Numbered from the stretch's first letter, positions 4,307 to 19,856 are shown. The stretch is 32,000 nt of DNA from Vulcanisaeta distributa DSM 14429 (GCF_000148385.1 NC_014537.1:1170001-1202000); one strand, 5' to 3'. The notes: generated from the sequence alone by a model not told the origin. Numbers and translations are program-made.

Positions 4307-5737
4307 TTAAATATAGTTTGTATAGAAGTAACTAAATATTGATGCCGATAACAATAACAACGCAGCACCCCATGAAACCCCTATGAATGGTCCATCACTT
4401 ATTGGGTTCAGGGCAAGCGATAATGCTATGATTATTATTGCCAAAATAGCCGTTACATAACCAATAATTGATGCCGCCGGCTTACTCAATACCCATGAGG
4501 TGGATTTGGCGCTTTCCGCCTTACCTCCGTTTAAAGCCTTATCCCTAACACTAACCCAAGATCTATGGGCCACGTATATGCCGGCGATTATTATTACTAA
4601 CGGCGGCAGCATCACGAGGGTAGCCCATGACGGGTTAACAGGCACTCCAGGCTGTATTGCACTCCACACGCTTAGTTCGATGAGCCAGGTTAAGCCGATT
4701 AGGGCTAGGGCGAGGATACCTGGCCTATCAAGTGGATGTAGCTTATCGTTCCTATCTAATGCGGGTATTATCAGTAGTATTATTACTGGAACAATCATTG
4801 ACAGTACTTCATCAATCTTAAGCCCAAAGGGCATGTCGAGCATCTTATAAATAAATAGGAAGAACCAGGGTGGATAGGCTGGTACTGCGGCGGCCTGGGG
4901 ACTAGTCGGCGATGGCCCTGGATGTGGCGAAAAGAGTATTGGTATGCTTGGATAAACACTGGGAAGTGCCAGTATTGATGGTATGAGTATTATTATTCCC
5001 CAGGTCATAAAAACTAATGCAACCATGTATATGAAGTTCCTGGGCCACCAAGGCGGTAAATCGTTATTATTCTTATTAATTACAGCTGGAGCCTTATACC
5101 CAGCATCTTTTAACCTCGGCATTAATCCATTCTCCTCAGCCAGGTAGAAGTGGAGTAGGAATAGTAGTATTATGGCCGCAGCTATGGTTATGTGCCAGGC
5201 TAGAAGCCTTGAGAAGAGATCGAGCTCTGTGCCATTGCCGAAGACGATAGGTATTAATGACTGTAAGCCTAATGCCGTTAATAACCCTCTACCTACGTCC
5301 ACAGCGTCGGTAGCCAATACGTCCCCAGTCAGTGAATACCCAATAAATGCTACGCCGAGGGTTAATACGAACATTAATACACCAAGCACCCACTGGAATC
5401 CCCTTGGTTTCTTATAACCACCCTTAAGCATTACGTAAAGTCCATGCATGTATACGGCGAATATCATGATGTAAGCGCCGTATAGGTGTGATGAGAGTAT
5501 TATTGAGCCAAAGGGTACGTTATGTATTATCGACATTGTTGAGTTGTACGCATTGCTTGGTTCATAATAGAATAGAAGCAGCAACCCAGTTAGTACCTGC
5601 CAGGCAAGTGCGCTGGCTGAGATCCCGCCAAGCCAATACTCAATACTAAACATGTAATTAGGTACGCCCATGAAGGGCACATCCTTAAGGTGCAGAAGTT
5701 CGGCGAACCAATCTGTGAAGTCCCTCCTCTCGCCCAT
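4307..5737 (-). CDS. soxN: Cytochrome b subunit of an archaeal bc1-analogous complex (SoxN/SoxC-like), polytopic membrane protein
   Basis: It is a multi-TM protein with a cytochrome b N-terminal signature (WLGGISASALAWQVLTGLLLLFYYEPS; His-containing helices SSHLYGAYIMIFAVYMHG and LLAWHITIAA). It sits 4 nt downstream of a Rieske gene on the same strand. Confidence 0.75.
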   Translation of the reverse strand: MGERRDFTDWFAELLHLKDVPFMGVPNYMFSIEYWLGGISASALAWQVLTGLLLLFYYEPSNAYNSTMSIIHNVPFGSIILSSHLYGAYIMIFAVYMHGLYVMLKGGYKKPRGFQWVLGVLMFVLTLGVAFIGYSLTGDVLATDAVDVGRGLLTALGLQSLIPIVFGNGTELDLFSRLLAWHITIAAAIILLFLLHFYLAEENGLMPRLKDAGYKAPAVINKNNNDLPPWWPRNFIYMVALVFMTWGIIILIPSILALPSVYPSIPILFSPHPGPSPTSPQAAAVPAYPPWFFLFIYKMLDMPFGLKIDEVLSMIVPVIILLIIPALDRNDKLHPLDRPGILALALIGLTWLIELSVWSAIQPGVPVNPSWATLVMLPPLVIIIAGIYVAHRSWVSVRDKALNGGKAESAKSTSWVLSKPAASIIGYVTAILAIIIIALSLALNPISDGPFIGVSWGAALLLLSASIFSYFYTNYI

Positions 5738-5741
5738 GATA

Positions 5742-6533
5742 TCACCCCGTTATTGCTGGGTTTGTGTGCATTGTTACGGCGGTTGATGTCCCACTAATTG
5801 GTGATCCACCCTGTAAGTCGCCTAATGGATTGTTTACAACATCCTGTGTTGGGTTGTTGTATCCTGGGTGTCCGTAGATTACTGGTCCTACCATCTTGAC
5901 TGCGTAGAGTTGGTCGGTGCTCGGGTCCCACTCGAGGACCACCGCCGGCAACGGCCTAACAGTAGGACCAGTAACCACAGCACCACCCAAATAAGGATCA
6001 TAAGTAGAACCATGGCATGAGCAGTGAAGCACCTTATCCTTAGGACCTAATGCCGTGATTGTTTTATACCCAGGTGGGTAAAATGTGAGTTCCGGGAATG
6101 TACAGCCTAGGTGTTGACAGATTGCGCTGAAGGCTACTATGGACTTGCTTGGGCCGACACCACCAGGAAACTCATACTTAACACCATTCTGTGGAATAAC
6201 CACCGTGGTTGGTGGCACCTCGACTGGTTGATTATTGTCATTGCCAAGGTTTAATAGGAAATTGGGCTCATTATTGAGTGGGTATGGGAATAGGGCTATT
6301 GTTGGTTGGGCATTGACAGGTAACTTACTTGCCTTTATTGGGTTGCCATTCTCATCAACAAGCAATAATCTTGGAAATGAGCTAATGCCTATTGATGGCG
6401 GCATAAGGTACTCAAGGCCCCTAAGCATCCCAAGAACAACAGCGGCACCGGAGATGAATAACATGGCCTTAAGGAAGTCTCTTCTACCCATTGATAGGCC
6501 ACCATTGTTACGGCTGCTCCTTTCACTCATCAC
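5742..6533 (-). CDS. soxL: Rieske [2Fe-2S] protein with a Tat signal (SoxL-like)
   Basis: It has a twin-arginine signal (GRRDFLKAMLFISGAAVV) and the Rieske boxes CQHLGC and CSCHGS. The start codon is GTG, with a TATA-like TTTATAAG (6554-6561, minus sense) ~21 nt upstream. Confidence 0.85.
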   Translation of the reverse strand: MMSERSSRNNGGLSMGRRDFLKAMLFISGAAVVLGMLRGLEYLMPPSIGISSFPRLLLVDENGNPIKASKLPVNAQPTIALFPYPLNNEPNFLLNLGNDNNQPVEVPPTTVVIPQNGVKYEFPGGVGPSKSIVAFSAICQHLGCTFPELTFYPPGYKTITALGPKDKVLHCSCHGSTYDPYLGGAVVTGPTVRPLPAVVLEWDPSTDQLYAVKMVGPVIYGHPGYNNPTQDVVNNPLGDLQGGSPISGTSTAVTMHTNPAITG

Positions 6534-6577
6534 TAACGGTACTTAATACTTACCTTATAAATTTTACTTAAATGTTA

Positions 6578-6632
6578 TTATCCCAATTTTATCCCAATTT
6601 ATTCCTAATTAACACCTATTTTTATCCCTATA
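6578..6632. promoter_or_regulatory. Array of TTATCCC-type direct repeats between the divergent soxL and cbsA core promoters
   Basis: There is a perfect tandem TTATCCCAATT at 6578-6588 and 6589-6599. A degenerate third unit TATTCCTAATT is at 6600-6610, and a further TTATCCCTA lies at about 6622-6630. The array is flanked by the two TATA-like boxes (6554-6561 and 6649-6656). Confidence 0.4.
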
Positions 6633-6675
6633 TCAACATATGATAAGACTTAAATACCAGGATTAATCCCAACGT

Positions 6676-8019
6676 ATGATGAGGATCGGGCTAAGACTGG
6701 CTACAATACTTGCGATAGCCCTGGTCATAATAGTGGGTGTGCTAGCCATGGTATACCCAGTCCCATTGGCCCAGGCGCCATCGGGTATCGTGGCTTATAA
6801 GGTTGTTGGCAGCGCCAACTTAGCAGCACCAGGTACCGAAAGCTTCTGGAAGGAAATACCCGCATACAACGTATCCCTTGTGCCGAACTTATCGACGCAG
6901 ATGATACCAATTAGCTACAACGTACCAACATCAGGGTTAGTACCCTACGTATTAGTTAAGGCAGCATGGAATGGCACGGACATAATCATCCTATTGGAGT
7001 GGCCAGACCCGTATGGGCCAAGCTACGCAGGCCCTGCGGCAATAGCGGGCCCTGGTCACTGGCCCGTTGTTTATAATCCAAATGGGCCCCTTAACATGAC
7101 ATTCCTAAAGCTACTAACTGGTACGTTCCATAAGAAGTACTTCGTAATTAATGCAAGTTATGCGGTGATTAAGGGTTCGCCAAGACCGATGGAGTACGTA
7201 CTTGCTTATTTAGCTCCTCATTATGGTGTTTACTTCTATGGATATTACGTTAATTTAACGGACGGTCATTATTACCCTGATAGGGTAGCCATAATGTGGT
7301 ATATGGGTTCGCAGCAAAGTCCAAGCGATTGCATGAACATAGGCGGTCCGCACCCAGGTTATAAGATACCTGGTGAGCTTGGTCAACTTGCCCAGGCGTA
7401 TTTAGGGACAAACGTGGAGGAATACACAGGTGGCTCTCTGAGCTCTGGTGCAGCCAATATTTGGGAATGGATCTCAGGAGCCACTGACCCGCAGGGTGAT
7501 AACTTCAATTACTTCACTAATGTAACGTGGGACGTGGAGAACGGCATCGACCCAGCAGCTGCGCAACAATTTGCGTCAAATCCGCATGGGTTCTTCATAA
7601 ACTTATTCGTTAATCAGACGGGGCTTTATGACGTAGGCGATGGAGGTATTTGGTACCCAAATGCCACAGGCCCTGAGCCCGGTTACTTCAGTGGGTATAC
7701 TGGCGCTGTTTATGAGAATGGTTATTGGATAGTGGAGTTCGTTAGGCCGTTATCAGCGCCAATGCCCGATACGATAAACCTGGTGCCGGGTCAGACATAC
7801 GATGTTGCCTTCGCAGTTTGGATTGGCAAGGCCGGTGAGACCTCCTGGGATAAGTCAATATCGCCAAGCTTTATACCACTGACTATCTCCACATCGCCAC
7901 CACCATCACACGCTGTATCGGCAATACCCGCGGCGGTCTTAACGGTGGCTGTGATAGGGATAGTAATAGCGGTGGTGGCCATAGGCCTCGTATACTACTC
8001 AATAAGGAGGAGAGGGTGA
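6676..8019 (+). CDS. cbsA: Membrane-anchored extracellular glycoprotein, CbsA-like (candidate cytochrome b558/566 subunit A)
   Basis: It has an N-terminal TM/signal, a C-terminal TM followed by RRRG, and 9 N-x-S/T sequons. It lies next to a hydrophobic partner and divergent from the Rieske/cytochrome b pair, which matches the content of the Sulfolobus cbsAB-soxLN locus. A TATA-like CTTAAATA is at 6649-6656. The assignment is by architecture and context, not by an alignment I could run. Confidence 0.55.
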   Translation: MMRIGLRLATILAIALVIIVGVLAMVYPVPLAQAPSGIVAYKVVGSANLAAPGTESFWKEIPAYNVSLVPNLSTQMIPISYNVPTSGLVPYVLVKAAWNGTDIIILLEWPDPYGPSYAGPAAIAGPGHWPVVYNPNGPLNMTFLKLLTGTFHKKYFVINASYAVIKGSPRPMEYVLAYLAPHYGVYFYGYYVNLTDGHYYPDRVAIMWYMGSQQSPSDCMNIGGPHPGYKIPGELGQLAQAYLGTNVEEYTGGSLSSGAANIWEWISGATDPQGDNFNYFTNVTWDVENGIDPAAAQQFASNPHGFFINLFVNQTGLYDVGDGGIWYPNATGPEPGYFSGYTGAVYENGYWIVEFVRPLSAPMPDTINLVPGQTYDVAFAVWIGKAGETSWDKSISPSFIPLTISTSPPPSHAVSAIPAAVLTVAVIGIVIAVVAIGLVYYSIRRRG

Positions 8020-8028
8020 TTGAGCTAA

Positions 8029-9063
8029 ATGGATGCTAACATTATTAGTGGTAAAAATCATAACTATGTTCACGGAGTACTCAATAGAGATCAAACAGTA
8101 TTGGTGGCGTTATTCTCGGTATTATTTATCCTCTACTTCATATTTAGGGAGTTCCTATTCTACGTTGCGCCATTCATGCCAAGTACTGGTATTAATATGG
8201 CTGATCTAGAGCTCATTGGTACATTCTCTGTGTTTGGGCTTGAGGTGGTTATACCATTCATGCTATACTTCATTAGAATACCACTTAGTAGGATTTACTT
8301 CCTGGTCACCGTGTTAATGCTGTGGGGAGGCACATTACTCAGTATTCTTTATCCAATGTATTACATGACTATTCCATGGGTAATAGGTAGTCTCGTCTAT
8401 GCTGCGTTGACCGTATTATCGCTAATAGCACTAGTCTATGAATTGAGAATTAAATCGTTGCCATTAGCACCACTAATTCTTCTTCAATTAATATCTCTAG
8501 CACTATACATCGCTAACGTATTAACGGAATACTTCGCATTTTCCCTAGGTGGATTAAGCCCATACCTAGTCTACCCAATGCTCTATCTAGCAGGTATTGG
8601 AGGTGTAGTACTTCTCATATATAGTATATACATATTAATTATTAATAGAATCAATACAAAGTTGATTTTGGGCTATGTGTCGGCGGCCGTACTAGGCCTA
8701 TTGATGGCATATCCCCTTTACTCATTGACAATTTATAATAGCTTCATGTCCCACATAATGTCCATGGTATTTGCCATGGGTTTAGGAATACTCGCACCTC
8801 CATCCTCAATGCCATTGATTGCGGTATTTATTGGGATTTACACGTATTCAATAATTGCCCTGGTAATAAGCGGCATAATGAATAAGATGCCCATGCATTA
8901 CTTAATTGCCGTTGCCTCACTTATCTACGTGACCACCGCATTCATAGAGCATGCAATAATCGTAATATTTGCTGCAGTACTAACAATAACCAACCTAATG
9001 ATATACCTAAGCATCACCAGTAAGGCACAGGCCATGGGTAATGACCATGCGGATATTTCATAG
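8029..9063 (+). CDS. cbsB: Highly hydrophobic polytopic membrane protein, CbsB-like
   Basis: It has roughly 9-10 predicted TM helices and almost no soluble segments. It starts 9 nt after the CbsA-like gene. Confidence 0.5.
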   Translation: MDANIISGKNHNYVHGVLNRDQTVLVALFSVLFILYFIFREFLFYVAPFMPSTGINMADLELIGTFSVFGLEVVIPFMLYFIRIPLSRIYFLVTVLMLWGGTLLSILYPMYYMTIPWVIGSLVYAALTVLSLIALVYELRIKSLPLAPLILLQLISLALYIANVLTEYFAFSLGGLSPYLVYPMLYLAGIGGVVLLIYSIYILIINRINTKLILGYVSAAVLGLLMAYPLYSLTIYNSFMSHIMSMVFAMGLGILAPPSSMPLIAVFIGIYTYSIIALVISGIMNKMPMHYLIAVASLIYVTTAFIEHAIIVIFAAVLTITNLMIYLSITSKAQAMGNDHADIS

Positions 9064-9427
9064 ATACCTAGTTTACGTAACCAAGGATGTAGGTAGGAGG
9101 GTTAGGTATCCGGGATCAGTGAGACTATGTAATAATGAGGGTAGGGTATTAAGGCTTAGGTTGAGGTATGGCGGACCATTCACTAAGACGGGGCTTGAGA
9201 ATTACGTAACCTACGTAGCACTCGTTAGTAATGATATTATTGTAAGTAATAAGTCTATTGAAAGCGAAGCATTTCAACTAAGTCCTGGCGAGTGCATTAA
9301 CTTTGACGTTGAGTATGAGGTAAGTGGTGAATTGGCTGATGAATTGGATTTTGTTAAGCTTAAGATGATTAATGATGGCTTGCTTAGCGTTGGTGGTTTT
9401 CAATTCGACGTAATTACTGAGGATTAG
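9041..9427 (+). CDS. Hypothetical soluble protein (128 aa)
   Basis: The ORF overlaps the 3' end of the CbsB-like gene by 23 nt, which suggests co-transcription. I recognise no motif. By position it could correspond to the small extra gene that follows the Sulfolobus cluster, but that is speculative. Confidence 0.45.
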   Translation: MTMRIFHRYLVYVTKDVGRRVRYPGSVRLCNNEGRVLRLRLRYGGPFTKTGLENYVTYVALVSNDIIVSNKSIESEAFQLSPGECINFDVEYEVSGELADELDFVKLKMINDGLLSVGGFQFDVITED

Positions 9428-9869
9428 AGTTATCACTAAGTTTTAAGCTCTCCTTAATTAATACGTATAGTTCGTCCCAATGCTTATAGGCATTATCCTC
9501 TATGAAATAAACATCACCATACCTTAAACCAAGTCTCTTAACCAAGCCATTCTTCTCAAGCAATTCCAGGTGGTGCTTAACCGTCTTATAATCCATATTC
9601 AACTCCTTAGCAATTCTATTGATGTTTGTTGGCCTCTCCCTGAGCAACAGCAATATCTTAGACCTAATTGGTCCGCCCCTCGACTCAACAAGCAACCACC
9701 TAATTCGAGCATACATGGGACAGGTATGTATCATCTTATCAGTAACCCCATCATTACTTACATGATCTCTATCGTTGTTCATTATTGATGCATCATCATT
9801 CATTTCGCCCACTAGTAATGCTAGGAAGGGCATTATTAAGCTTTTAATGAGTTCACCAAGGGCTATCAT
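9414..9869 (-). CDS. ArsR/SmtB-type winged-helix transcriptional regulator
   Basis: IRSKILLLLRERPTNINRIAKELNMDYKTVKHHLELLEKNGLVKRL is a classic ArsR-type HTH. The hydrophobic and acidic N-terminal ~45 aa may be upstream of the true start (internal ATGs are present). The protein has only one Cys (HTCPMY). Confidence 0.75.
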   Translation of the reverse strand: MIALGELIKSLIMPFLALLVGEMNDDASIMNNDRDHVSNDGVTDKMIHTCPMYARIRWLLVESRGGPIRSKILLLLRERPTNINRIAKELNMDYKTVKHHLELLEKNGLVKRLGLRYGDVYFIEDNAYKHWDELYVLIKESLKLSDNSNPQ

Positions 9870-9968: not shown

Positions 9969-10011
9969 AGAAACATTTATAAACATACGCACTTCATCTT
10001 GCTGACCAGGT

Positions 10012-10107
10012 ATGTGCATGCCAAGTCCATACATGACTAAGAAGAAGGATAAGGAGAATGTTAAGGCTGAGGATAGGAGCAAGCAGGAGACGCAGGTTAA
10101 GGAGTAA
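10012..10107 (+). CDS. Candidate small ORF (31 aa, Lys/Glu-rich): MCMPSPYMTKKKDKENVKAEDRSKQETQVKE
   Basis: The ATG lies 28 nt downstream of a good TATA box (TTTATAAA, 9976-9983), which is leaderless-type spacing. The ORF is below the ORF-track cutoff and I recognise no homology. Confidence 0.25.
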   Translation: MCMPSPYMTKKKDKENVKAEDRSKQETQVKE

Positions 10108-10215
10108 GTGCTACCTAAAAGTGATTACCGTACTTAAAATACTCACCTCTATATCTCCTACTGTGCAGAGACTGCATTGCCTCTCCGCTTTTAAAGGGAA
10201 TCCATGTAAGTCTAC

Positions 10216-10653
10216 GTGATGAAATTACTTATTTTAATCACCAACTCAACGTTGGATCGATTATTAACGTTAGGCACGATAACTCTTGGTGCAGTTAGTA
10301 TGGGTCATGAGGTTGCCATTTACGCCACGCAGTCTGCATCTTTTGCATTCCTTAGGAATTATGCAGATAAAATCGGTAATTATAACGGTGATTCTTCATT
10401 AGAAGTGTTAGTTAATGGTGTCGTTAATGGCTATAACAATGCCGTAATTAATGGTAAATTTTTCAAGTGGTATGAAATGATTAAGCAGGCCAAGGAGATT
10501 GGTAATGTGAGAGTTTACGTTTGTACCCAGCCCTTTGAGTTGGCAGGTATTAAGGTTAGTTTGGGTGATTTTCTTGATATAGTTGATGAATTGGTTATGA
10601 TTGGTAAATACATTGAGCTGCTTGAGTGGTGTGATAAGTCGGTCTCATTGTGA
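10216..10653 (+). CDS. DsrE/DsrF-like family sulfur-relay protein
   Basis: It is ~145 aa with a Rossmann-like start (KLLILITNS), which I read as typical of DsrE-family proteins, and a candidate active-site Cys in VRVYVCTQPFELAGI. A TATA-like TTTTAAAG is at 10189-10196, 20 nt upstream. A TusA gene lies next to it. Confidence 0.65.
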   Translation: MMKLLILITNSTLDRLLTLGTITLGAVSMGHEVAIYATQSASFAFLRNYADKIGNYNGDSSLEVLVNGVVNGYNNAVINGKFFKWYEMIKQAKEIGNVRVYVCTQPFELAGIKVSLGDFLDIVDELVMIGKYIELLEWCDKSVSL

Positions 10654-10667
10654 ATTTGAATAAATTT

Positions 10668-10681
10668 ATTTAAATTTAAAT
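10668..10681. repeat. Palindromic 14-mer ATTTAAATTTAAAT, copy 2
   Basis: This is an exact match to 9955-9968. It lies ~40 nt upstream of the tusA TATA box TATATAAA (10720-10727). Confidence 0.5.
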
Positions 10682-10749
10682 GAATACTGAACTGTGCAAA
10701 AACAGCACTGATTTAAGGCTATATAAAGCATTACGTTAGTTATAATGTC

Positions 10750-10995
10750 GTGAAATTCGAAAAGGTGAATAACAATAGGTATTTATTGGATGCCCGGGGT
10801 TATGCCTGTCCATACCCTCAAGTCTTTACGTTGAAGGCCATTAAGGAATTGAAGGAAGGTTCGATAATGGAGGTTCTCGTTGATAACCCAGCGAGTTGTG
10901 ACAATGTACCGGCGGCTGTTAGGAAGCTTGGTCATGAGGTTCTTGAAGTTAGGCAGGAGAGTAATTACTGGAGGATTATAATTAGGAAGCGGTGA
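10750..10995 (+). CDS. tusA: TusA/SirA-family sulfurtransferase
   Basis: It has the CPxP active-site motif in LDARGYACPYPQV within an ~80-aa two-layer alpha/beta-sized protein. The start is GTG, with TATATAAA 22 nt upstream. Confidence 0.85.
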   Translation: MKFEKVNNNRYLLDARGYACPYPQVFTLKAIKELKEGSIMEVLVDNPASCDNVPAAVRKLGHEVLEVRQESNYWRIIIRKR

Positions 10996-12737
10996 TGGAG
11001 ATGAGGGATGATAGGATAAGGGTGTTTAGGGAGAGACTAGATAAGTACCTGGATCTTGGGATTAACCTATTGTCCCTTGCCATTGGCTGTTCAGTTAAGG
11101 TTGACCTATACGATACGTTATACCCAGCCCTCTCACTCGTTAACAATGAAATAGCTAAGTTAAACATAGAGATACAGCCTAGAGAGGACGTAGCCGTGTT
11201 AAGGAGTAACGGTGATTACTCACTGGTTAGGAGGATATATGATATAACTGGTAATGGTGTAAATAAGGATGAATTAGTTAGTATTAATCCATCAGTGGCA
11301 TTGCTGTTACTGCAGGTTCACCAGTCACGTGCATCATCGCCGAGGGAATTTGCAAGTTCAATAATAAGCCTATATAGGAGGTTGGGTAGTTCGCCTGTTA
11401 GGGTTAGGATTGGTAAGGGTCACTCTATAGTCTCGACTAAGGAGAAGGCTGAGTTTGCCCTCATCGATTTCATAAGTACGAAGAGTGGTGATGGGTACTT
11501 ATTGGCTAATAATGATACGATACAGATAATTGACCCGACGGAGGACCCAGGTAGTTATAGGCAGGTGGCTACCGCAGTAAGTAATGCGTTGAATGACCTA
11601 TTCATAAAGGGCGTGTATAGGGATATAACGATATACCCAGTCTATGATGCGCCAATTGAGGATTTAAAGGAGAAATTAATGAAGAATTTTAGGGAATTTA
11701 GCAGTAAGTGGGACCTTCAATTAAGTACTGATGTGCAACAGCCAAGGGTTAATTACCTATTGATGGGCGCCACCGTGGTTGGTACATTAGATAGGGAACC
11801 ACCAATGTTCTACGACAACATTAAGGCCGGCTTTAAGATACTTATTACTAGGCCCTTTGGTGAGCTTTCCATAATATCTACGTATTTAACGGCTCATGTT
11901 GATGAGTCAATAATGGATGAGCTTGAACGTAACGTGATGAGTATTGAGGATCTTGAGAAATTGAAGATAAAAATAATGGACATACTCTCAAGACCTAACA
12001 TCGAGATAGCCAGAGTAATAAGTAAGTACCTACCTGAGATAGGTGAGGCGTTTAGGGAGGATGAGCATATAGCAGCCACAATAGATGTATCAGGACCCGG
12101 CATATTTGTATTCAAGGAGCTGGCCGAGCAGGCCAATGTCGATGTTGCACTATACAATATACCATTGATATCGCCTGAGGTTGCGAGATTCGCCGCTGAG
12201 CACTACATAATTACAGATGCCACAGCAGGTACTAATGGGGCTATAGCAATTGTGGCTAGTAAGGATGTTATTGACTCGATTGTCAGGGATTTAAGGGGTA
12301 TTGAGGATGTTCAGCCCATGGTGATTGGTGAGGTAATGGGTAAGGGGTCTGGCAGGTTATTCGTGCCTGATTACGTAACGAGGTACATAACGAGTAAATC
12401 ATTATTGATGAAGCTCACTATGAACATTGATGTATTAAGAAGCCTAAGGAGACAGCAGGTTAAGTGTGAAAAGGTGAGGGTTGAGGCGAGGGTATTCGGT
12501 AATGTGCAGGGTGTTGGTTTTAGACCAACACTACGTAGGCAAGCCCTATCCCTTGGATTAACTGGGTATGTGAGGAACCTTCCAGATGGTTCGGTTGAGG
12601 TGGTCGCTGAGGGATGTAAGGAGGATGTAATGGCTCTCATTGAGTGGATTAGGTCAAGCCCCGTTGGTTCTGTTGAGACTATAAATTACGTCATTAAGCA
12701 ATACTTTGGTGAGTTTGAGGATTTCGAAATAAGGTAA
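10992..12737 (+). CDS. SelD-like PurM-superfamily ATP-utilising enzyme fused to a C-terminal acylphosphatase domain
   Basis: The N-terminal loop AIGCSVKVD parallels the SelD GAGCGCKIS loop (Cys, then Lys three residues later). The PurM/SelD Asp/Asn motifs are present: EDVAVL, IIDPTEDP, NALNDLFIKG, IDVSGPG and TNGAIAIV. The C-terminal 90 aa carry both acylphosphatase signatures (VFGNVQGVGFR; GYVRNLPDGSVEVVAEG). The start (GTG 10992 or ATG 10995) overlaps the tusA stop (TGATG). Confidence 0.75.
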   Translation: MMEMRDDRIRVFRERLDKYLDLGINLLSLAIGCSVKVDLYDTLYPALSLVNNEIAKLNIEIQPREDVAVLRSNGDYSLVRRIYDITGNGVNKDELVSINPSVALLLLQVHQSRASSPREFASSIISLYRRLGSSPVRVRIGKGHSIVSTKEKAEFALIDFISTKSGDGYLLANNDTIQIIDPTEDPGSYRQVATAVSNALNDLFIKGVYRDITIYPVYDAPIEDLKEKLMKNFREFSSKWDLQLSTDVQQPRVNYLLMGATVVGTLDREPPMFYDNIKAGFKILITRPFGELSIISTYLTAHVDESIMDELERNVMSIEDLEKLKIKIMDILSRPNIEIARVISKYLPEIGEAFREDEHIAATIDVSGPGIFVFKELAEQANVDVALYNIPLISPEVARFAAEHYIITDATAGTNGAIAIVASKDVIDSIVRDLRGIEDVQPMVIGEVMGKGSGRLFVPDYVTRYITSKSLLMKLTMNIDVLRSLRRQQVKCEKVRVEARVFGNVQGVGFRPTLRRQALSLGLTGYVRNLPDGSVEVVAEGCKEDVMALIEWIRSSPVGSVETINYVIKQYFGEFEDFEIR

Positions 12738-12847
12738 TCAGTTCGATGATTAATATGCATGATCCATACCTTATAAACCCATCGACTCAGTTAATAATCA
12801 GTACATGTAATAAGTATTTTAATATGTATGTATGATATTAATTAGGT

Positions 12848-13096
12848 GTGGTTGATATGAGTAATGTCATTGATGTTAGGGGTCTTCAATGCCCAACACC
12901 AGTTACAATTGTCGCTAATGCGGTGGATAAGGCTGAGGCAGGGTCGACGCTTACGGTAATAACGGACGACTTCATATGCTTCATGATGATACAGAGGATA
13001 TTGAAGATTCTCAATGTGGAGATTAGGGAGGCTGTGCAGTTGGATGATGGTAATTATAGAATAGTCGTCATTAAGTCTCCTAAAGGTACTCAATAA
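12848..13096 (+). CDS. tusA: Second TusA/SirA-family sulfurtransferase
   Basis: It has the CPxP motif in DVRGLQCPTPVT. The likely true start is ATG 12857, preceded by GGTG. Confidence 0.8.
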   Translation: MVDMSNVIDVRGLQCPTPVTIVANAVDKAEAGSTLTVITDDFICFMMIQRILKILNVEIREAVQLDDGNYRIVVIKSPKGTQ

Positions 13097-13145: not shown

Positions 13146-13964
13146 ATGCCGACAGTAGCCTTTAAGGTGTTTTATGATGGATCATTATTTAGTGGATTTA
13201 CAGGTAGTACTAACTCCATTGAGTATTACCTGAGGAGGGCCATTAGGTATTTCATTAAAGACTTTAAGCTAAGCAAGGCCTCGAGGACAGACCCAGGGGT
13301 TAGCGCTATTGGTAATGTAGTCTCGATAAATTACATTGACAGTATTAGATTAGTACCTGGCATGTTGAATTCCAGGTTACCAAATGGAATTAGGGCATGG
13401 GCATGGGCTGAGGTTGACGAAGGTTTTCGTGCAAGGGCCGCGGTGTCTAGGACCTATGTTTATGTAATGCCCTGGCTTTATGAGGATATTGATTTAATGA
13501 GGAGTGCAGCGAAATTGTTTGTGGGTGTTCATGATCTATCGAATTTTCAGGTTAAGGAGAAGGGTGTGCCGACCACGGTGATGATAAATAACGTTAATAT
13601 TGAAAGGTTTGGCGATTACCTGGTCTTTATAGTCATTGGTCGCGGGTTCAGGAATAAGATGATTAGGAAGATTGTCAATGCACTTAGGATGGTTGGTTCT
13701 GGAATATTGACTATTGATGAGTTACGGGACTTAATAGAGTTGAGGATTAGAAAGCCAATACCACCTGCACCACCCTACGGATTATTACTGCTTAATGTGA
13801 ATTACGGCGATAGGGAGCCAAACTGGGTATTAAGTGTTGATGATATTTCCTACGTAATTAACTACTTAGTAAATAGGTGGTATAATTCACTATCTAATTC
13901 CTTTATTATTTCAAAAATTCTTCATGATTTTATGGATATAAATAAATTATTTAGTCGTATTTAA
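13146..13964 (+). CDS. truA: tRNA pseudouridine synthase A (TruA/Pus family)
   Basis: It has an FKVFYDGSLFSGF-type N-terminus and the catalytic motif SRTDPGVSAIGNVVS (compare RTDxGVHA). The length is typical of archaeal TruA. Confidence 0.85.
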   Translation: MPTVAFKVFYDGSLFSGFTGSTNSIEYYLRRAIRYFIKDFKLSKASRTDPGVSAIGNVVSINYIDSIRLVPGMLNSRLPNGIRAWAWAEVDEGFRARAAVSRTYVYVMPWLYEDIDLMRSAAKLFVGVHDLSNFQVKEKGVPTTVMINNVNIERFGDYLVFIVIGRGFRNKMIRKIVNALRMVGSGILTIDELRDLIELRIRKPIPPAPPYGLLLLNVNYGDREPNWVLSVDDISYVINYLVNRWYNSLSNSFIISKILHDFMDINKLFSRI

Positions 13965-14022
13965 ACATAACATGGACCAAATGTTTAAATAATAAATAAA
14001 ATAATATGCATACGGGAGTTTT

Positions 14023-14709
14023 GTGGCATATTTCGACATCGACATAGCCTGCAGGGAAGGGTTTGGTGAACGTAAGTTAGTCTCAATGATTCAACAACGG
14101 ATTAACTCCCTGCCCTGGGACTTAGATCTTAATGAGCAGGATTTTCTAACGGGCTATGCCTACCAGGATTTGAGATATTACTTATTATATAAGTTTGGAT
14201 TGCTTAATTTGAGTAATAATGATGCATCATATGAGTTATGTAAAAGGATTTTGAGGAACGAGGAACAGGTGACGAAAATAGTTGATGAATGGTTTAATTG
14301 GTGGGTTATTAAGTGGAGACAGAGGGTTAAACTTGTCTTTAGTGAGAATGAGCAGTTGAATAATGAGAACAATAATAACGCTAATCCTCAGTCTAATGCT
14401 GACGAATTACTTAAGAGTATTCCTAAGAATCTAGTTGATAAGTTACGTAGAGAGATAATCGTGGAATTAATAAGGCAGAACGAGGTTTGTAGCCTTGATG
14501 TGGTTTCAGACTTCATATTAAGGACCACACTTAGTGAGTTGATTAATGAGTATGGTAAGGATGGCACGTTGAAATTAATATCGACAAATATCACGAGCAT
14601 ACGCTTAAGGCTACTAAAGAAAATAATGGAAATAAGAGATTCCAATCAGCCACTCGTGATTCTCAGGGTTAGAATCAGCCCATCGCAGACATACCAAGGA
14701 ATCTCGTAA
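14023..14709 (+). CDS. Hypothetical protein with an Asn-rich low-complexity linker
   Basis: The 228-aa ORF starts with GTG. It has two helical-looking halves joined by NNENNNNANPQSNA. The next gene (radical SAM) starts 5 nt later. I recognise no motif. Confidence 0.5.
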   Translation: MAYFDIDIACREGFGERKLVSMIQQRINSLPWDLDLNEQDFLTGYAYQDLRYYLLYKFGLLNLSNNDASYELCKRILRNEEQVTKIVDEWFNWWVIKWRQRVKLVFSENEQLNNENNNNANPQSNADELLKSIPKNLVDKLRREIIVELIRQNEVCSLDVVSDFILRTTLSELINEYGKDGTLKLISTNITSIRLRLLKKIMEIRDSNQPLVILRVRISPSQTYQGIS

Positions 14710-14714
14710 CACCA

Positions 14715-16259
14715 ATGAACGCATACCAAAAATCTTACAGGAAAGGAATGATTAAGGTAGCCATTGCTTACCCATCAAATGCCAGAGTAGCCCTTCAATC
14801 ACTATCAATACACATAATCAGGAAACTATTAAATGAGCATTCAAACGTGTATTCAGACTTCGTATTTATAGGCGATGACGGTAAATCCCTAACTAAATCA
14901 CTTAGGGATTTCGACATAGTGATATTTTCAGTGCATTATGAACTTGATTACCCACGTATACTAAAGATGATGGAGTTAAGCGGTATAAACCCATATAATT
15001 CCCAAAGGAGTATTGATGATCCATTAATTGTGTTAGGTGGACCAACATTAATGGCAAATCCTGAGCCAATGGCGCCGTTTGCTGACATAATGCTCATTGG
15101 CGATGCTGAGGTGCTAATTCCTCAACTTATTAGTCATTATATGGAGTATGGTAAGAATATTGATAGTTATATTGGTCCAATGGGCTTTTACGTGCCAAGC
15201 ATTGGCAGGCATACCGTAACCAAGGCATTCGTAAAGGATCTTTCATACTCAATTAGGTTAATTCATGATACGGCAATCGAGTTAGGCCTGGGTAATGTTA
15301 AGTCAATATTTAGTAATCCGGCGGTTCTCGAGGTTATGAGAGGCTGTCCGAGAGGGTGCTTGTTCTGTATGGAGGGCTTTGTTAGTAGGCCTGTTAGGTT
15401 TGCTGATATTACTTCTATTAAGGGATTGATACTTAGGGATTTGGGTAGGAACGGAATAATTAATGGTGTATCCTTAATAGGTCTCTCCGTGACTGATCAT
15501 CCAGGTTTTAAGGAATTAATGAACTTTCTAGTAAATGAGTTAAAGCTTAACGTTTCTGTTCCTTCCCTACGAGTTGACACATTAGACAGGGACATTATTA
15601 GGTTAATTGCGAAGGGTGGTCAAAGGGTTCTCACAATAGCCCCTGAATCGAGTGAAAGGTTGAGGAAGGCATTGGGTAAGGGGTTTTCGGACGATGACGT
15701 TGTTAAGATAGCTATGGACGCAGTAAGTGTGGGTATTGATCATCTAAAGCTTTACTTCATGGTTGGATTACCAGGTGAAGGCGATGAGGACATAAAATCA
15801 ATAGTTAATCTCTTAACGAGACTTAGGAGGTTAGGCATTAAGCATTCACTTTCAGTTAATCCATGGATACCAAAGCCACATACCCCACTACAATGGTTAC
15901 CAATGGCTGATGATAAGGTCATTAACGATAGAATTAAAACTCTAAGGGATGCACGAACATATGATGAGTTTTCAACATACAATGTGCTTGACGCCAAGGT
16001 TCAGGCATTGCTAGCGCTTGGTGATAGGGACGTTGGCAACTTAATATTTGAGGCATCATTAACGAACCTTGATAGGGGCTCCTGGAGAAGATTACTTAGG
16101 AAGTACGAGAACTTACTTAATAAGTACGTGTACTCATGGAAACCACTTAATGGTGAATTACCCTGGAGCCACATAAAAATTCCAGGTGCTGAGGAGGAAA
16201 ATCTTAAATCATTATTATTTAAGTACGTTAACGAAGTTGGCATTAATCTTCCTACTTAA
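14715..16259 (+). CDS. Radical SAM enzyme with an N-terminal B12-binding-like (flavodoxin-like) domain
   Basis: The CxxxCxxC cluster is in VMRGCPRGCLFCMEG. The N-terminal region (VAIAYPSN...FDIVIFSVHYE...LVLGGP) is typical of the B12-binding-like domain found in class-B-like radical SAM proteins. Confidence 0.85.
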   Translation: MNAYQKSYRKGMIKVAIAYPSNARVALQSLSIHIIRKLLNEHSNVYSDFVFIGDDGKSLTKSLRDFDIVIFSVHYELDYPRILKMMELSGINPYNSQRSIDDPLIVLGGPTLMANPEPMAPFADIMLIGDAEVLIPQLISHYMEYGKNIDSYIGPMGFYVPSIGRHTVTKAFVKDLSYSIRLIHDTAIELGLGNVKSIFSNPAVLEVMRGCPRGCLFCMEGFVSRPVRFADITSIKGLILRDLGRNGIINGVSLIGLSVTDHPGFKELMNFLVNELKLNVSVPSLRVDTLDRDIIRLIAKGGQRVLTIAPESSERLRKALGKGFSDDDVVKIAMDAVSVGIDHLKLYFMVGLPGEGDEDIKSIVNLLTRLRRLGIKHSLSVNPWIPKPHTPLQWLPMADDKVINDRIKTLRDARTYDEFSTYNVLDAKVQALLALGDRDVGNLIFEASLTNLDRGSWRRLLRKYENLLNKYVYSWKPLNGELPWSHIKIPGAEEENLKSLLFKYVNEVGINLPT

Positions 16260-19373: not shown

Positions 19374-19856
19374 TCATGATTGAGTCTCAAAAGTGCTCCT
19401 TGCTAAATTCACGAGGGCTTCGATATCGGGCAGATCTCTTCTAACTTGGTCAGGTCTAAGCCTTGCCTCATGAAATCCCTCCACGTGTAAAAACCATGCC
19501 CGTCCCCACCACCACCTGACCTCCCTCTTACCAAGCCTATCTGCGGCGTCATCCACAGCATCAAATAGTAATTGCGCTGTCCACCTACCAATCTCAGACG
19601 CTCTCCTCGCCTCGTCTAGGCCTAGGATTATGGCGATCGCCTTGATGGCCTCCTCAGCCGCCTTGTAGAGCTTCTCACTGGCCTGCACGGGATCCTTCTC
19701 GATTAAATTCCTACCTTCATTTAGGAATTTTTCTGCGAGTTCAAGATGCGCTTTACTCGTTGTTAATGGGTCAAGCGATAATGCCTTTGATATTAGGTCA
19801 ATTATGTCAATGCCCCTTTTCTCCGCCTCATCGAGTATCAGCTTTGGGATTTCCAC
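19374..19856 (-). CDS. PaREP1-family protein (HEPN-superfamily-like)
   Basis: LYKAAEEAIKAIAIILGL...RWTAQLLFDAV...WWWGRAWFLHVEGFHE is typical of the crenarchaeal PaREP1 family. It contains an R-x4-H motif (RAWFLH, nt 19485-19502). Confidence 0.7.
   Translation of the reverse strand: MEIPKLILDEAEKRGIDIIDLISKALSLDPLTTSKAHLELAEKFLNEGRNLIEKDPVQASEKLYKAAEEAIKAIAIILGLDEARRASEIGRWTAQLLFDAVDDAADRLGKREVRWWWGRAWFLHVEGFHEARLRPDQVRRDLPDIEALVNLARSTFETQS

Follow-up and report, generated by a model that had tools for sequence, protein, structure and literature searches.

A module of four genes, located at positions 10,216 to 13,096 of a 32,000-nucleotide stretch of the Vulcanisaeta distributa DSM 14429 genome (NC_014537.1:1170001-1202000, the window hereafter), is, judged by its sequence, the representative in Vulcanisaeta of an archaeal 'SelD-like' module already in the literature (Li et al. 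2014, BMC Genomics 15:908, PMC4210487; NCBIfam NF038049). The four co-directional open reading frames (ORFs) encode a DsrE-like protein, a TusA, a 581-aa SelD-like-acylphosphatase fusion and a second TusA (Table 1), in the order and at the positions given by a first-pass annotation made from the bare sequence. The SelD-like enzyme is predicted to keep the catalytic set of selenophosphate synthetases (SPS), namely the mobile N-terminal Cys-x-x-Lys loop, the Asp residues that bind metal and ATP, and the Asn. The general reading favoured here, ATP-dependent activation of sulfur delivered by relay proteins, is given about an even chance of being right.

The first-pass annotation had presented the cluster as a candidate uncharacterised module. 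As a claim of discovery this brings little that is new: the family, the genes around it and the idea of a thiophosphate product have been in the literature since 2014 and in the NCBI annotation models, where NF038049 is curated. The cluster was recognised correctly and independently, but it is no new candidate. PMC4210487 describes the family in Sulfolobales and Thermoproteales, an acylphosphatase-like fusion in all Thermoproteales, SirA-like (PF01206) and 'Prx-like' COG2210 neighbours with rhodanese nearby, and conserved Cys-x-x-Lys, Asp and Asn residues, the N-terminal Cys-x-x-Lys loop being SelD-specific within the superfamily. It proposes a thiophosphate compound made from sulfur species and ATP, assigns SelD-like proteins to COG0709, reports Sulfolobales to be without a true SelD, and includes the V. 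distributa locus in Figure 4; nothing essential in it differs from the module described here. The SelD-like family of Crenarchaeota goes without mention in Mariotti et al. (2015), and reviews of 2022 and 2026 still call its function speculative. The additions of the present analysis are a wider distribution, a separate adjacent acylphosphatase outside Thermoproteales, two TusA groups, linkage to YeeE/YedE and rhodanese genes, a link to the reported essentiality of the Sulfolobus islandicus ortholog, and a 100-aa insertion in the enzyme, of which the sections consulted of the 2014 paper make no mention.

Identity of the SelD-like fusion protein

Residues 11-476 of the fusion match NF038049 ('SelD-related putative sulfur metabolism protein', SelD_rel_HyperS) with 707-708 bits against a cutoff of 250, over model positions 2-464 of 465, and the protein is 92% identical to its homolog P0001 and 85% identical to the V. 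souniana protein. The N-terminal 480 aa score far lower with the classical families. Both SelD models, PRK14105 (42.8 bits, cutoff 291) and TIGR00476 (27.2 bits, cutoff 125), remain below their cutoffs, which sets the protein outside bona fide SelD; the hypE model TIGR02124 gives 20.2 bits against 251.6, and this score together with the acylphosphatase domain at the C-terminus sets it outside HypE. The ThiL and PurM models gave no match in the NCBIfam scan of this segment. Since Pfam AIRS and AIRS_C did not match the N-terminal 480 aa even at E<=10, the assignment to the PurM superfamily rests on NCBIfam and on the predicted fold.

Sequence and profile searches against PDB chains were marginal for the superfamily (HypE 0.04, PurM 0.27, SelD 0.5-0.6) and could not rank the families, and for this reason Foldseek was applied to an AlphaFold model. 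The model, built on 74 homologs, has a mean pLDDT of 91.4 and is poorly defined only at residues 31-33, which include Cys33, and in the inter-domain linker; in its low confidence the loop at 31-33 would resemble the mobile loop of SelD. The top match in the PDB is human SPS1 (E=1.3e-17), followed by Leishmania SPS, with HypE (9e-15), E. coli SelD (5e-14) and ThiL (5e-12) lower. Hence the first-pass placement of the protein as SelD-like, and not as ThiL, HypE or PurM, is borne out by the best classical-family scores, which are those of SelD, and by a fold closest to selenophosphate synthetases.

The residues expected of such an enzyme are the C33-x-x-K36 loop (G32-C33-S-V-K36; C33-K36 at nt 11088-11099), D66, D175, N198, D202 and D365, all of them invariant in 74 family members; the Cys/Lys loop had been recognised as SelD-specific in the first-pass annotation, and G32 and the intervening residues share its invariance. 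Alignment with E. coli SelD by hhalign equates N198 with N87, D202 with D91 and D365 with D227, and D66 and D175 are assigned as D51-like and D68-like by motif order only. The best local match of the N-terminal segment in E. coli SelD is SHGAGC17GCK20I (residues 12-21), a short match that is not significant alone (E=0.07); the predicted correspondence of the Cys loops agrees with the published alignment. The enzyme thus shares with SelD and SPS proteins (TIGR00476, PRK14105; structures 3u0o, 2zod and 3fd5) the PurM-superfamily fold, in which they are its best structural match, and a flexible Gly-rich Cys-x-x-Lys loop. It differs from them in its low identity to the solved SelDs (15-19% in structural alignments), in about 100 extra residues between the D51-like and D68-like motifs, in a degenerate GGHSI site and in the fused or adjacent acylphosphatase.

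The extra residues form a family-specific insertion with the motif G141-K-G-H-S-I146; across the 74 sequences five of its six positions never vary, and the remaining one, G143, is kept in about 90%. The position of the canonical SelD GGHSI motif (around residues 240-250) is degenerate in the family according to hhalign with E. coli SelD. The best local match of the insertion in E. coli SelD is the GGHSI strand itself (E=0.06), and a self-comparison gave E=0.07. Neither value is significant, so the insertion is not taken for a copied or relocated half of the N-domain; the N-domain could be rearranged or partly duplicated.

The C-terminal domain matches PF00708 over residues 498-580 with 84.4 bits (cutoff 22.5). 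It finds the S. solfataricus acylphosphatase 2bjd with E=3e-22 in the PDB search, and its predicted model superimposes on that structure with a root-mean-square deviation of 1.0 A. The catalytic Arg and Asn proved invariant in 53 of 53 fused or adjacent acylphosphatase copies. From its residues the fused acylphosphatase is predicted to be catalytically intact.

Table 1. Features of the SelD-like module and of the divergent gene upstream of it, in window coordinates
Feature	Position	Strand	Basis
DsrE-like protein, 145 aa, conserved Cys103 (nt 10522-10524)	10216..10653	+	PF02635 marginal
Upstream TusA (TusA1), 81 aa, YedF-type, active-site C20 in CPYP (nt 10807-10809)	10750..10995	+	PF01206
tusA1/SelD-like gene stop-start overlap, GTGATG	10992..10997	+	sequence read
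SelD-like-acylphosphatase fusion, 581 aa	10992..12737	+	
SelD-like PurM-superfamily ATPase domain, residues 1-480	10992..12431	+	NF038049
Family-specific insertion, ~100 aa, residues 68-172, between D66 and D175 motifs	11193..11507	+	conservation
C-terminal acylphosphatase domain, residues about 495-581	12474..12737	+	PF00708, Arg in GVGFR, Asn in YVRN
Downstream TusA (TusA2), 82 aa, C15 in CPTP (nt 12890-12892)	12848..13096	+	PF01206 60.1 bits
ArsR/SmtB-type winged-helix regulator, divergent from cluster	9414..9869	-	HTH_5 PF01022 42.8 bits

Conservation of the module across archaea

Eighty loci obtained by a scan of GTDB species genomes were joined with the window into a set of 81. Neighbouring ORFs were called in all of them and labelled by iterated domain profiles, and the YeeE/YedE, rhodanese and SQR-like groups were found by unsupervised clustering of all neighbouring ORFs. 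The neighbour counts are lower bounds, because many contigs end short. In 57 loci no more than 120 bp separates the SelD-like gene from a TusA gene, and in 68 no more than 600 bp, the loci coming from many archaeal orders; conservation of the neighbourhood, which the first-pass annotation had made a condition of its reading, is strong. The acylphosphatase is fused in 19 loci, all from Thermoproteales, and stands as a separate adjacent gene on the same strand in another 33, being fused or adjacent in 52 of the 81. Within Thermoproteales only two of 21 loci lack the fusion, and both (L038 and L058) have split or frameshifted genes. A YeeE/YedE sulfur-transport protein (PF04143, 163 bits) is encoded within 3.5 kb in 26 loci, a tandem rhodanese (121 bits) in 24 and a DsrE-like protein in 15, ten of which are from Thermoproteales; an SQR-like flavoprotein lies within 6 kb in eight. 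This arrangement is far beyond chance. The conserved core order, as read from the sequences, appears to be YeeE/YedE, CPYP-TusA, SelD-like, acylphosphatase and second TusA, with or without rhodanese.

One of the two exceptions, the draft of Vulcanisaeta sp. JCM 14467 (L038), carries its SelD-like gene in pieces of 229, 233 and 88 aa (10001-11740) and a radical SAM gene in three pieces (13712-15268). An intact 578-aa protein, P0004, is reported for JCM 14467 from another assembly, and the splits are most likely frameshift errors of the draft and not pseudogenes.

The two TusA proteins belong to separate orthologous groups. All 35 TusA copies directly upstream on the same strand have CPYP, and 34 of them cluster together; in the downstream copies the CPxP varies, and 34 of the 41 group with one another. 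TusA1 of the window matches PF01206 with 84.3 bits (cutoff 28.6) and falls below the cutoffs of the YedF model NF008242 (73.9 bits against 79) and of TIGR03527, the SirA-DsrE fusion model (41.4 against 110, over model positions 1-68 of 194). The TGATG junction noticed in the first-pass annotation reads as described there: the tusA1 stop TGA at 10993-10995 overlaps both candidate starts of the SelD-like gene, ATG at 10995-10997 and the in-frame GTG at 10992, and junctions that overlap or nearly abut are a repeated feature of the 35 loci in which a same-strand TusA precedes the SelD-like gene. From the sequence, tusA1 and the SelD-like gene are the only pair in the cluster predicted to be translationally coupled. 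AT-rich TATA-like boxes precede the dsrE-like, tusA1, tusA2 and truA starts by about 25-30 nt, which suggests that these genes have separate leaderless transcripts. The true start of TusA2 is likely the ATG at 12857, which has its TATA-like box about 30 nt 5'.

The DsrE-like protein scores marginally with PF02635 (24.8 bits, cutoff 22.7) and reaches 16.7 bits with PF13686. It groups with DsrE homologs of other loci that score 76.9 bits, its Cys103 column is conserved, it has no CGxC and it is encoded apart from TusA. Probably it corresponds to the 'Prx-like' COG2210 neighbour of PMC4210487. The DsrE-like proteins of Vulcanisaeta (window, L001 and L038) contain an insertion of about 16 aa, VLVNGVVNGYNNAVING, which the homologs of Pyrobaculum, Thermoproteus and Sulfolobaceae lack and which is probably the cause of the marginal Pfam score.

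Lineage spread was read from the record titles. Beyond Sulfolobales and Thermoproteales, the family is found in Acidilobaceae, Caldisphaera, Desulfurococcales, Pyrodictiaceae, Ignisphaera and Thermofilaceae, in Methanomethylicia, Hydrothermarchaeales and Baldrarchaeota, and in metagenome-assembled genomes (MAGs) under the labels Thaumarchaeota, Nitrososphaerales or Nitrosopumilales, of which some come from the sea or from groundwater. Two MAGs labelled 'Halobacteria' and one contig labelled Acidobacteriota also carry it. The marine and groundwater record names, which point to non-thermophilic settings, suggested a conflict with the 'hyperthermophilic sulfur-reducer' label of the family.

Eleven loci with thaumarchaeal labels (L046, L047, L050, L056, L057, L060, L064, L065, L069, L070 and L074) share a variant module, in which the SelD-like gene is usually followed by two TusA genes and then, in most, by a tandem rhodanese; L046 and L047 have their second TusA upstream, in divergent orientation. 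No acylphosphatase is adjacent in the variant, and several of these loci have YeeE/YedE about 2.3 kb upstream on the opposite strand. The Acidobacteriota contig (L033, CBDCMH010000005.1, a 406-kb contig of a MAG) encodes the SelD-like protein with a divergent ArsR-type gene and an adjacent TusA, and an acylphosphatase and a second TusA about 1 kb downstream of the SelD-like gene. Either a bacterium acquired these genes by horizontal transfer, or the contig is archaeal and was mislabelled or misbinned.

Bacterial systems offer parallels to this arrangement. Bacterial SelD is likewise associated with YedE and with SirA/DsrE (YedF) partners, and the conserved core is an unfused parallel of the selenium-linked bacterial set of YedE, YedF (a SirA-DsrE fusion) and SelD (PMC5322559). 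The pairing of a transporter with a TusA-like protein, as in YedE/YedF and YeeE/YeeD (TsuA/TsuB), is shared by the 26 loci in which a PF04143 protein stands directly upstream of CPYP-TusA. In contrast to YedE/YedF, the window has no YeeE/YedE gene, and TusA and the DsrE-like protein are separate, the YedF of TIGR03527 being a SirA-DsrE fusion. YeeE/YeeD takes up thiosulfate for assimilation (PMC11073785) and has no SelD-like partner. The DsrE3A/DsrE2B/TusA relay of the hdr clusters of Sulfolobales, as described for Metallosphaera cuprina (PMC4175335), has DsrE-family and TusA proteins with active-site Cys encoded side by side, as here. Unlike that relay, the module of the window is without hdr, lbpA and dld, its DsrE-like protein is marginal with PF02635, and the partner is an ATP-dependent PurM-superfamily enzyme. 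No hdr-like or lipoate-binding genes were found among window ORFs of at least 90 aa, which places the module outside the sHdr-type DsrE/TusA clusters.

Proposed activation of relay-delivered sulfur and competing explanations

A mechanism can be drawn by analogy with SelD. CPYP-TusA would bring sulfane sulfur to Cys33 of the SelD-like enzyme, the sulfur coming in other lineages from a neighbouring YeeE/YedE importer, rhodanese or SQR-like enzyme; in the window the DsrE-like protein would be the only relay candidate besides TusA. The enzyme would then use ATP to form a phosphorylated, activated sulfur, either thiophosphate or a perthiophosphate bound to the enzyme or to TusA, and the second TusA, or a rhodanese, would carry the product or the sulfur onward. 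The acylphosphatase may render the reaction irreversible by hydrolysing a phospho-intermediate or by-product. Thiophosphate or perthiophosphate as the specific product is a doubtful, if conceivable, assignment. In its full form the proposal is equally tentative: the SelD-like enzyme, the acylphosphatase and the two TusA proteins might constitute an essential ATP-driven route from relay sulfane sulfur to thiophosphate or protein-bound perthiophosphate, serving as a general biosynthetic donor in many archaea, with the GKGHSI-bearing insertion rebuilding part of the active site.

Housekeeping supply of sulfur for biosynthesis is a more likely purpose than dissimilatory sulfur respiration, because the ortholog in S. 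islandicus, a heterotroph that is not grown on sulfur, is listed as essential. The listing comes from transposon sequencing (PMC6249222, Supplementary Data 4), in which the gene is M164_2661 (COG0709/arCOG00643), with orthologs Saci_2268 and SSO2635. Experimental work on these three genes in the literature searched comes down to this essentiality call and to the identification of SSO2635 in a two-dimensional gel. SSO2635, a 52.5-kDa COG0709 'hypothetical protein', was found in the Pro-Q Diamond phospho-stained spot P8, which it shares with FadD-1 (PMC2739297, Table 3). A phospho-stained spot fits a phospho-enzyme intermediate, but it is ambiguous and far from proof. Formation of thiophosphate is recorded for the mammalian selenocysteine pathway at selenium deficiency, as cited in PMC6770646.

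The first-pass annotation had imagined a relay handing its cargo to a SelD-like ATPase. That core stands, SelD being the best classical match, the neighbourhood being conserved and Crenarchaeota being reported without selenium traits in PMC4210487; its newness and the suggested parts of truA and ArsR do not.

Several points weigh against the proposed sulfur activation. The coupling to TusA and acylphosphatase is not universal: among named Sulfolobaceae none of nine loci has a TusA within 120 bp, and an adjacent TusA and acylphosphatase are usually lacking. A divergent rhodanese is common at these Sulfolobaceae loci, for example in S. acidocaldarius. With its degenerate GGHSI position and 100 inserted aa, the enzyme may have an active site unlike that of SelD, and it is hard to see what an acylphosphatase would do in a reaction of plain SelD type. 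In bacteria, partners of the YedE/YedF type are tied to selenium. Homology is the source of the predicted use of ATP, sulfur substrate and product, and no biochemical study of any family member was found in the papers searched to 2026. We know of no acceptor enzyme for thiophosphate in these archaea. The SepSecS-like or SepCysS routes are given as absent in PMC4210487. Finally, M164_2661 is taken as a member of the family indirectly, from its COG and arCOG assignment, protein size and synteny.

Among the alternatives, the one that puts selenium in the place of sulfur uses much of the same evidence. The SelD-like enzyme would make selenophosphate or a related selenium donor from YedE/YedF-type delivery, for a use not yet recognised; all SelD catalytic residues are kept, TusA1 is YedF-type with CPYP and the YedF score given above, a YeeE/YedE-family gene precedes TusA in 26 loci, bacterial YedE and YedF co-occur with SelD (PMC5322559) and new SelD-dependent pathways are still emerging, according to a preprint (bioRxiv 10.1101/2022.04.13.486033). 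Such a cryptic pathway is nevertheless judged quite improbable. The protein scores far under the SelD cutoffs, the other conserved neighbours (rhodanese, SQR-like, DsrE) are classical sulfur enzymes, the S. islandicus gene is listed as essential in laboratory culture, and PMC4210487 reports a known selenium trait in no crenarchaeote, all those sequenced being without one. Neither selA, selB nor ybbB was found by the domain scans of the 32-kb window, as the first-pass annotation had stated, nor was yqeB or yqeC, and the lineages that carry the SelD-like protein differ from SelD hosts in being reported without selenocysteine, selenouridine or selenium-cofactor traits. A second alternative draws on the maturation of [NiFe]-hydrogenase by HypE and HypF, with which the fusion shares the pairing of a PurM-superfamily ATPase with an acylphosphatase domain. 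In this scheme, which resembles Model 1 (acyl-thiophosphate) of PMC4210487, an acyl phosphate or carbamoyl phosphate would be supplied or edited by the acylphosphatase, and with ATP the PurM-type domain would modify a Cys-bound group on TusA or on itself. By fold HypE comes second, and apart from SelD it is the one classical family with a model match; the acylphosphatase domain of HypF (4g9i, 3vth) matches that of the fusion, and the linkage to an acylphosphatase with intact catalytic residues extends over 52 loci. However, the window encodes no YrdC-like or Kae1-like carbamoyltransferase domain, and the thaumarchaeal and Sulfolobaceae members have no adjacent acylphosphatase. The SelD-like protein ends in the acylphosphatase domain and not in a HypE-type C-terminal Cys, HypE itself ending in a Cys of its own. 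Moreover, the N-terminal Cys-x-x-Lys loop is reported as SelD-specific in the superfamily (PMC4210487), and acyl-phosphate chemistry of this kind is considered unlikely.

An accessory role in dissimilatory metabolism has been modelled since 2014. The enzyme would assist sulfur or sulfate reduction with APS reductase and DSR, or sHdr-type sulfur oxidation; AprAB co-occurs with it in Thermoproteales, with DSR, PspE and Fe-S oxidoreductases nearby (PMC4210487), DsrE/TusA pairs act in sHdr clusters (PMC4175335, PMC11094781), and SQR-like genes lie within 6 kb in eight loci. The window speaks against it, no hdr, sox, dsr, apr, lipoate-binding (lbpA) or selenium-pathway domains appearing in Pfam and NCBIfam scans of its ORFs of at least 90 aa, in accordance with what the first-pass annotation had claimed for hdr, sox and lipoate-binding genes. 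An essential gene in cultured S. islandicus, a heterotroph, and the presence of the family in marine- and groundwater-labelled MAGs of Thaumarchaeota, Nitrososphaerales and Nitrosopumilales argue in the same direction, and a dissimilatory role has a low probability. That the genes are clustered incidentally, with no functional link, would fit the coupling of tusA1 and the SelD-like gene alone, the dsrE-like, tusA2 and truA genes each having an apparent TATA-like box of their own, and it would fit the named Sulfolobaceae without adjacent TusA and acylphosphatase. It is hardly credible, since the TusA and acylphosphatase adjacency and the gene order are kept across many archaeal orders and a fusion exists in one; the neighbourhood statistics over the 81 loci effectively refute it.

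A full selenophosphate-synthetase catalytic set is conserved in numerous lineages of archaea for which no use of selenium is reported. If the enzyme makes thiophosphate or a related activated sulfur, this would be a new biological sulfur donor, the route would be a sulfur counterpart of the selenophosphate pathway, and the divergence of selenium and sulfur pathways would be better explained. The partners that the comparative data name are the acylphosphatase, a CPYP-type TusA, a further TusA, and either a YeeE/YedE transporter or a rhodanese.

Genes around the module

The divergent ArsR-type gene had been proposed in the first-pass annotation as a possible regulator of the cluster, and a role as its dedicated regulator is not supported: such a gene adjoins the SelD-like gene in three of the 81 loci (window, L001 and L033), and the protein of the window has a single Cys. 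The hint that the adjacent truA marks an RNA-modification sink fares no better. truA is adjacent in two loci, both from Vulcanisaeta, with an apparent TATA-like promoter of its own in the window, and it was rejected as a functional partner. In L001, another Vulcanisaeta, a rhodanese takes the downstream position instead of truA.

Downstream of the module the window contains truA, a gene for a 228-aa protein, a B12-type radical SAM gene, and genes for eIF6, TIM and aconitase; the first three of these come after the module only in the window and in the Vulcanisaeta locus L038. The 228-aa ORF (14023-14709, +) has no Pfam or NCBIfam match and is conserved in Vulcanisaeta (L038) only. It abuts the radical SAM gene (14715-16259, +), whose product is of the B12-binding type and scores 247 bits with TIGR03960 against a cutoff of 462.

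Upstream, at 4307-9063, lies a cytochrome b / Rieske / EB_dh-type cluster, whose EB_dh-type gene encodes a haem protein and which also includes the gene for a membrane protein of 344 aa without family match. The SelD-like gene of S. acidocaldarius is located just 3' of genes with SoxE, COX1/COX3 and Rieske domains (L082, 1-4524 upstream). By its locus numbering this position presumably fits the tag Saci_2268. The closeness to respiratory-complex genes in two orders may be a coincidence, such genes not forming a conserved neighbour cluster across the 81 loci. Farther downstream in the window, on the - strand, a PaREP1/PaREP8-family protein (116 bits) is encoded at 19374-19856.

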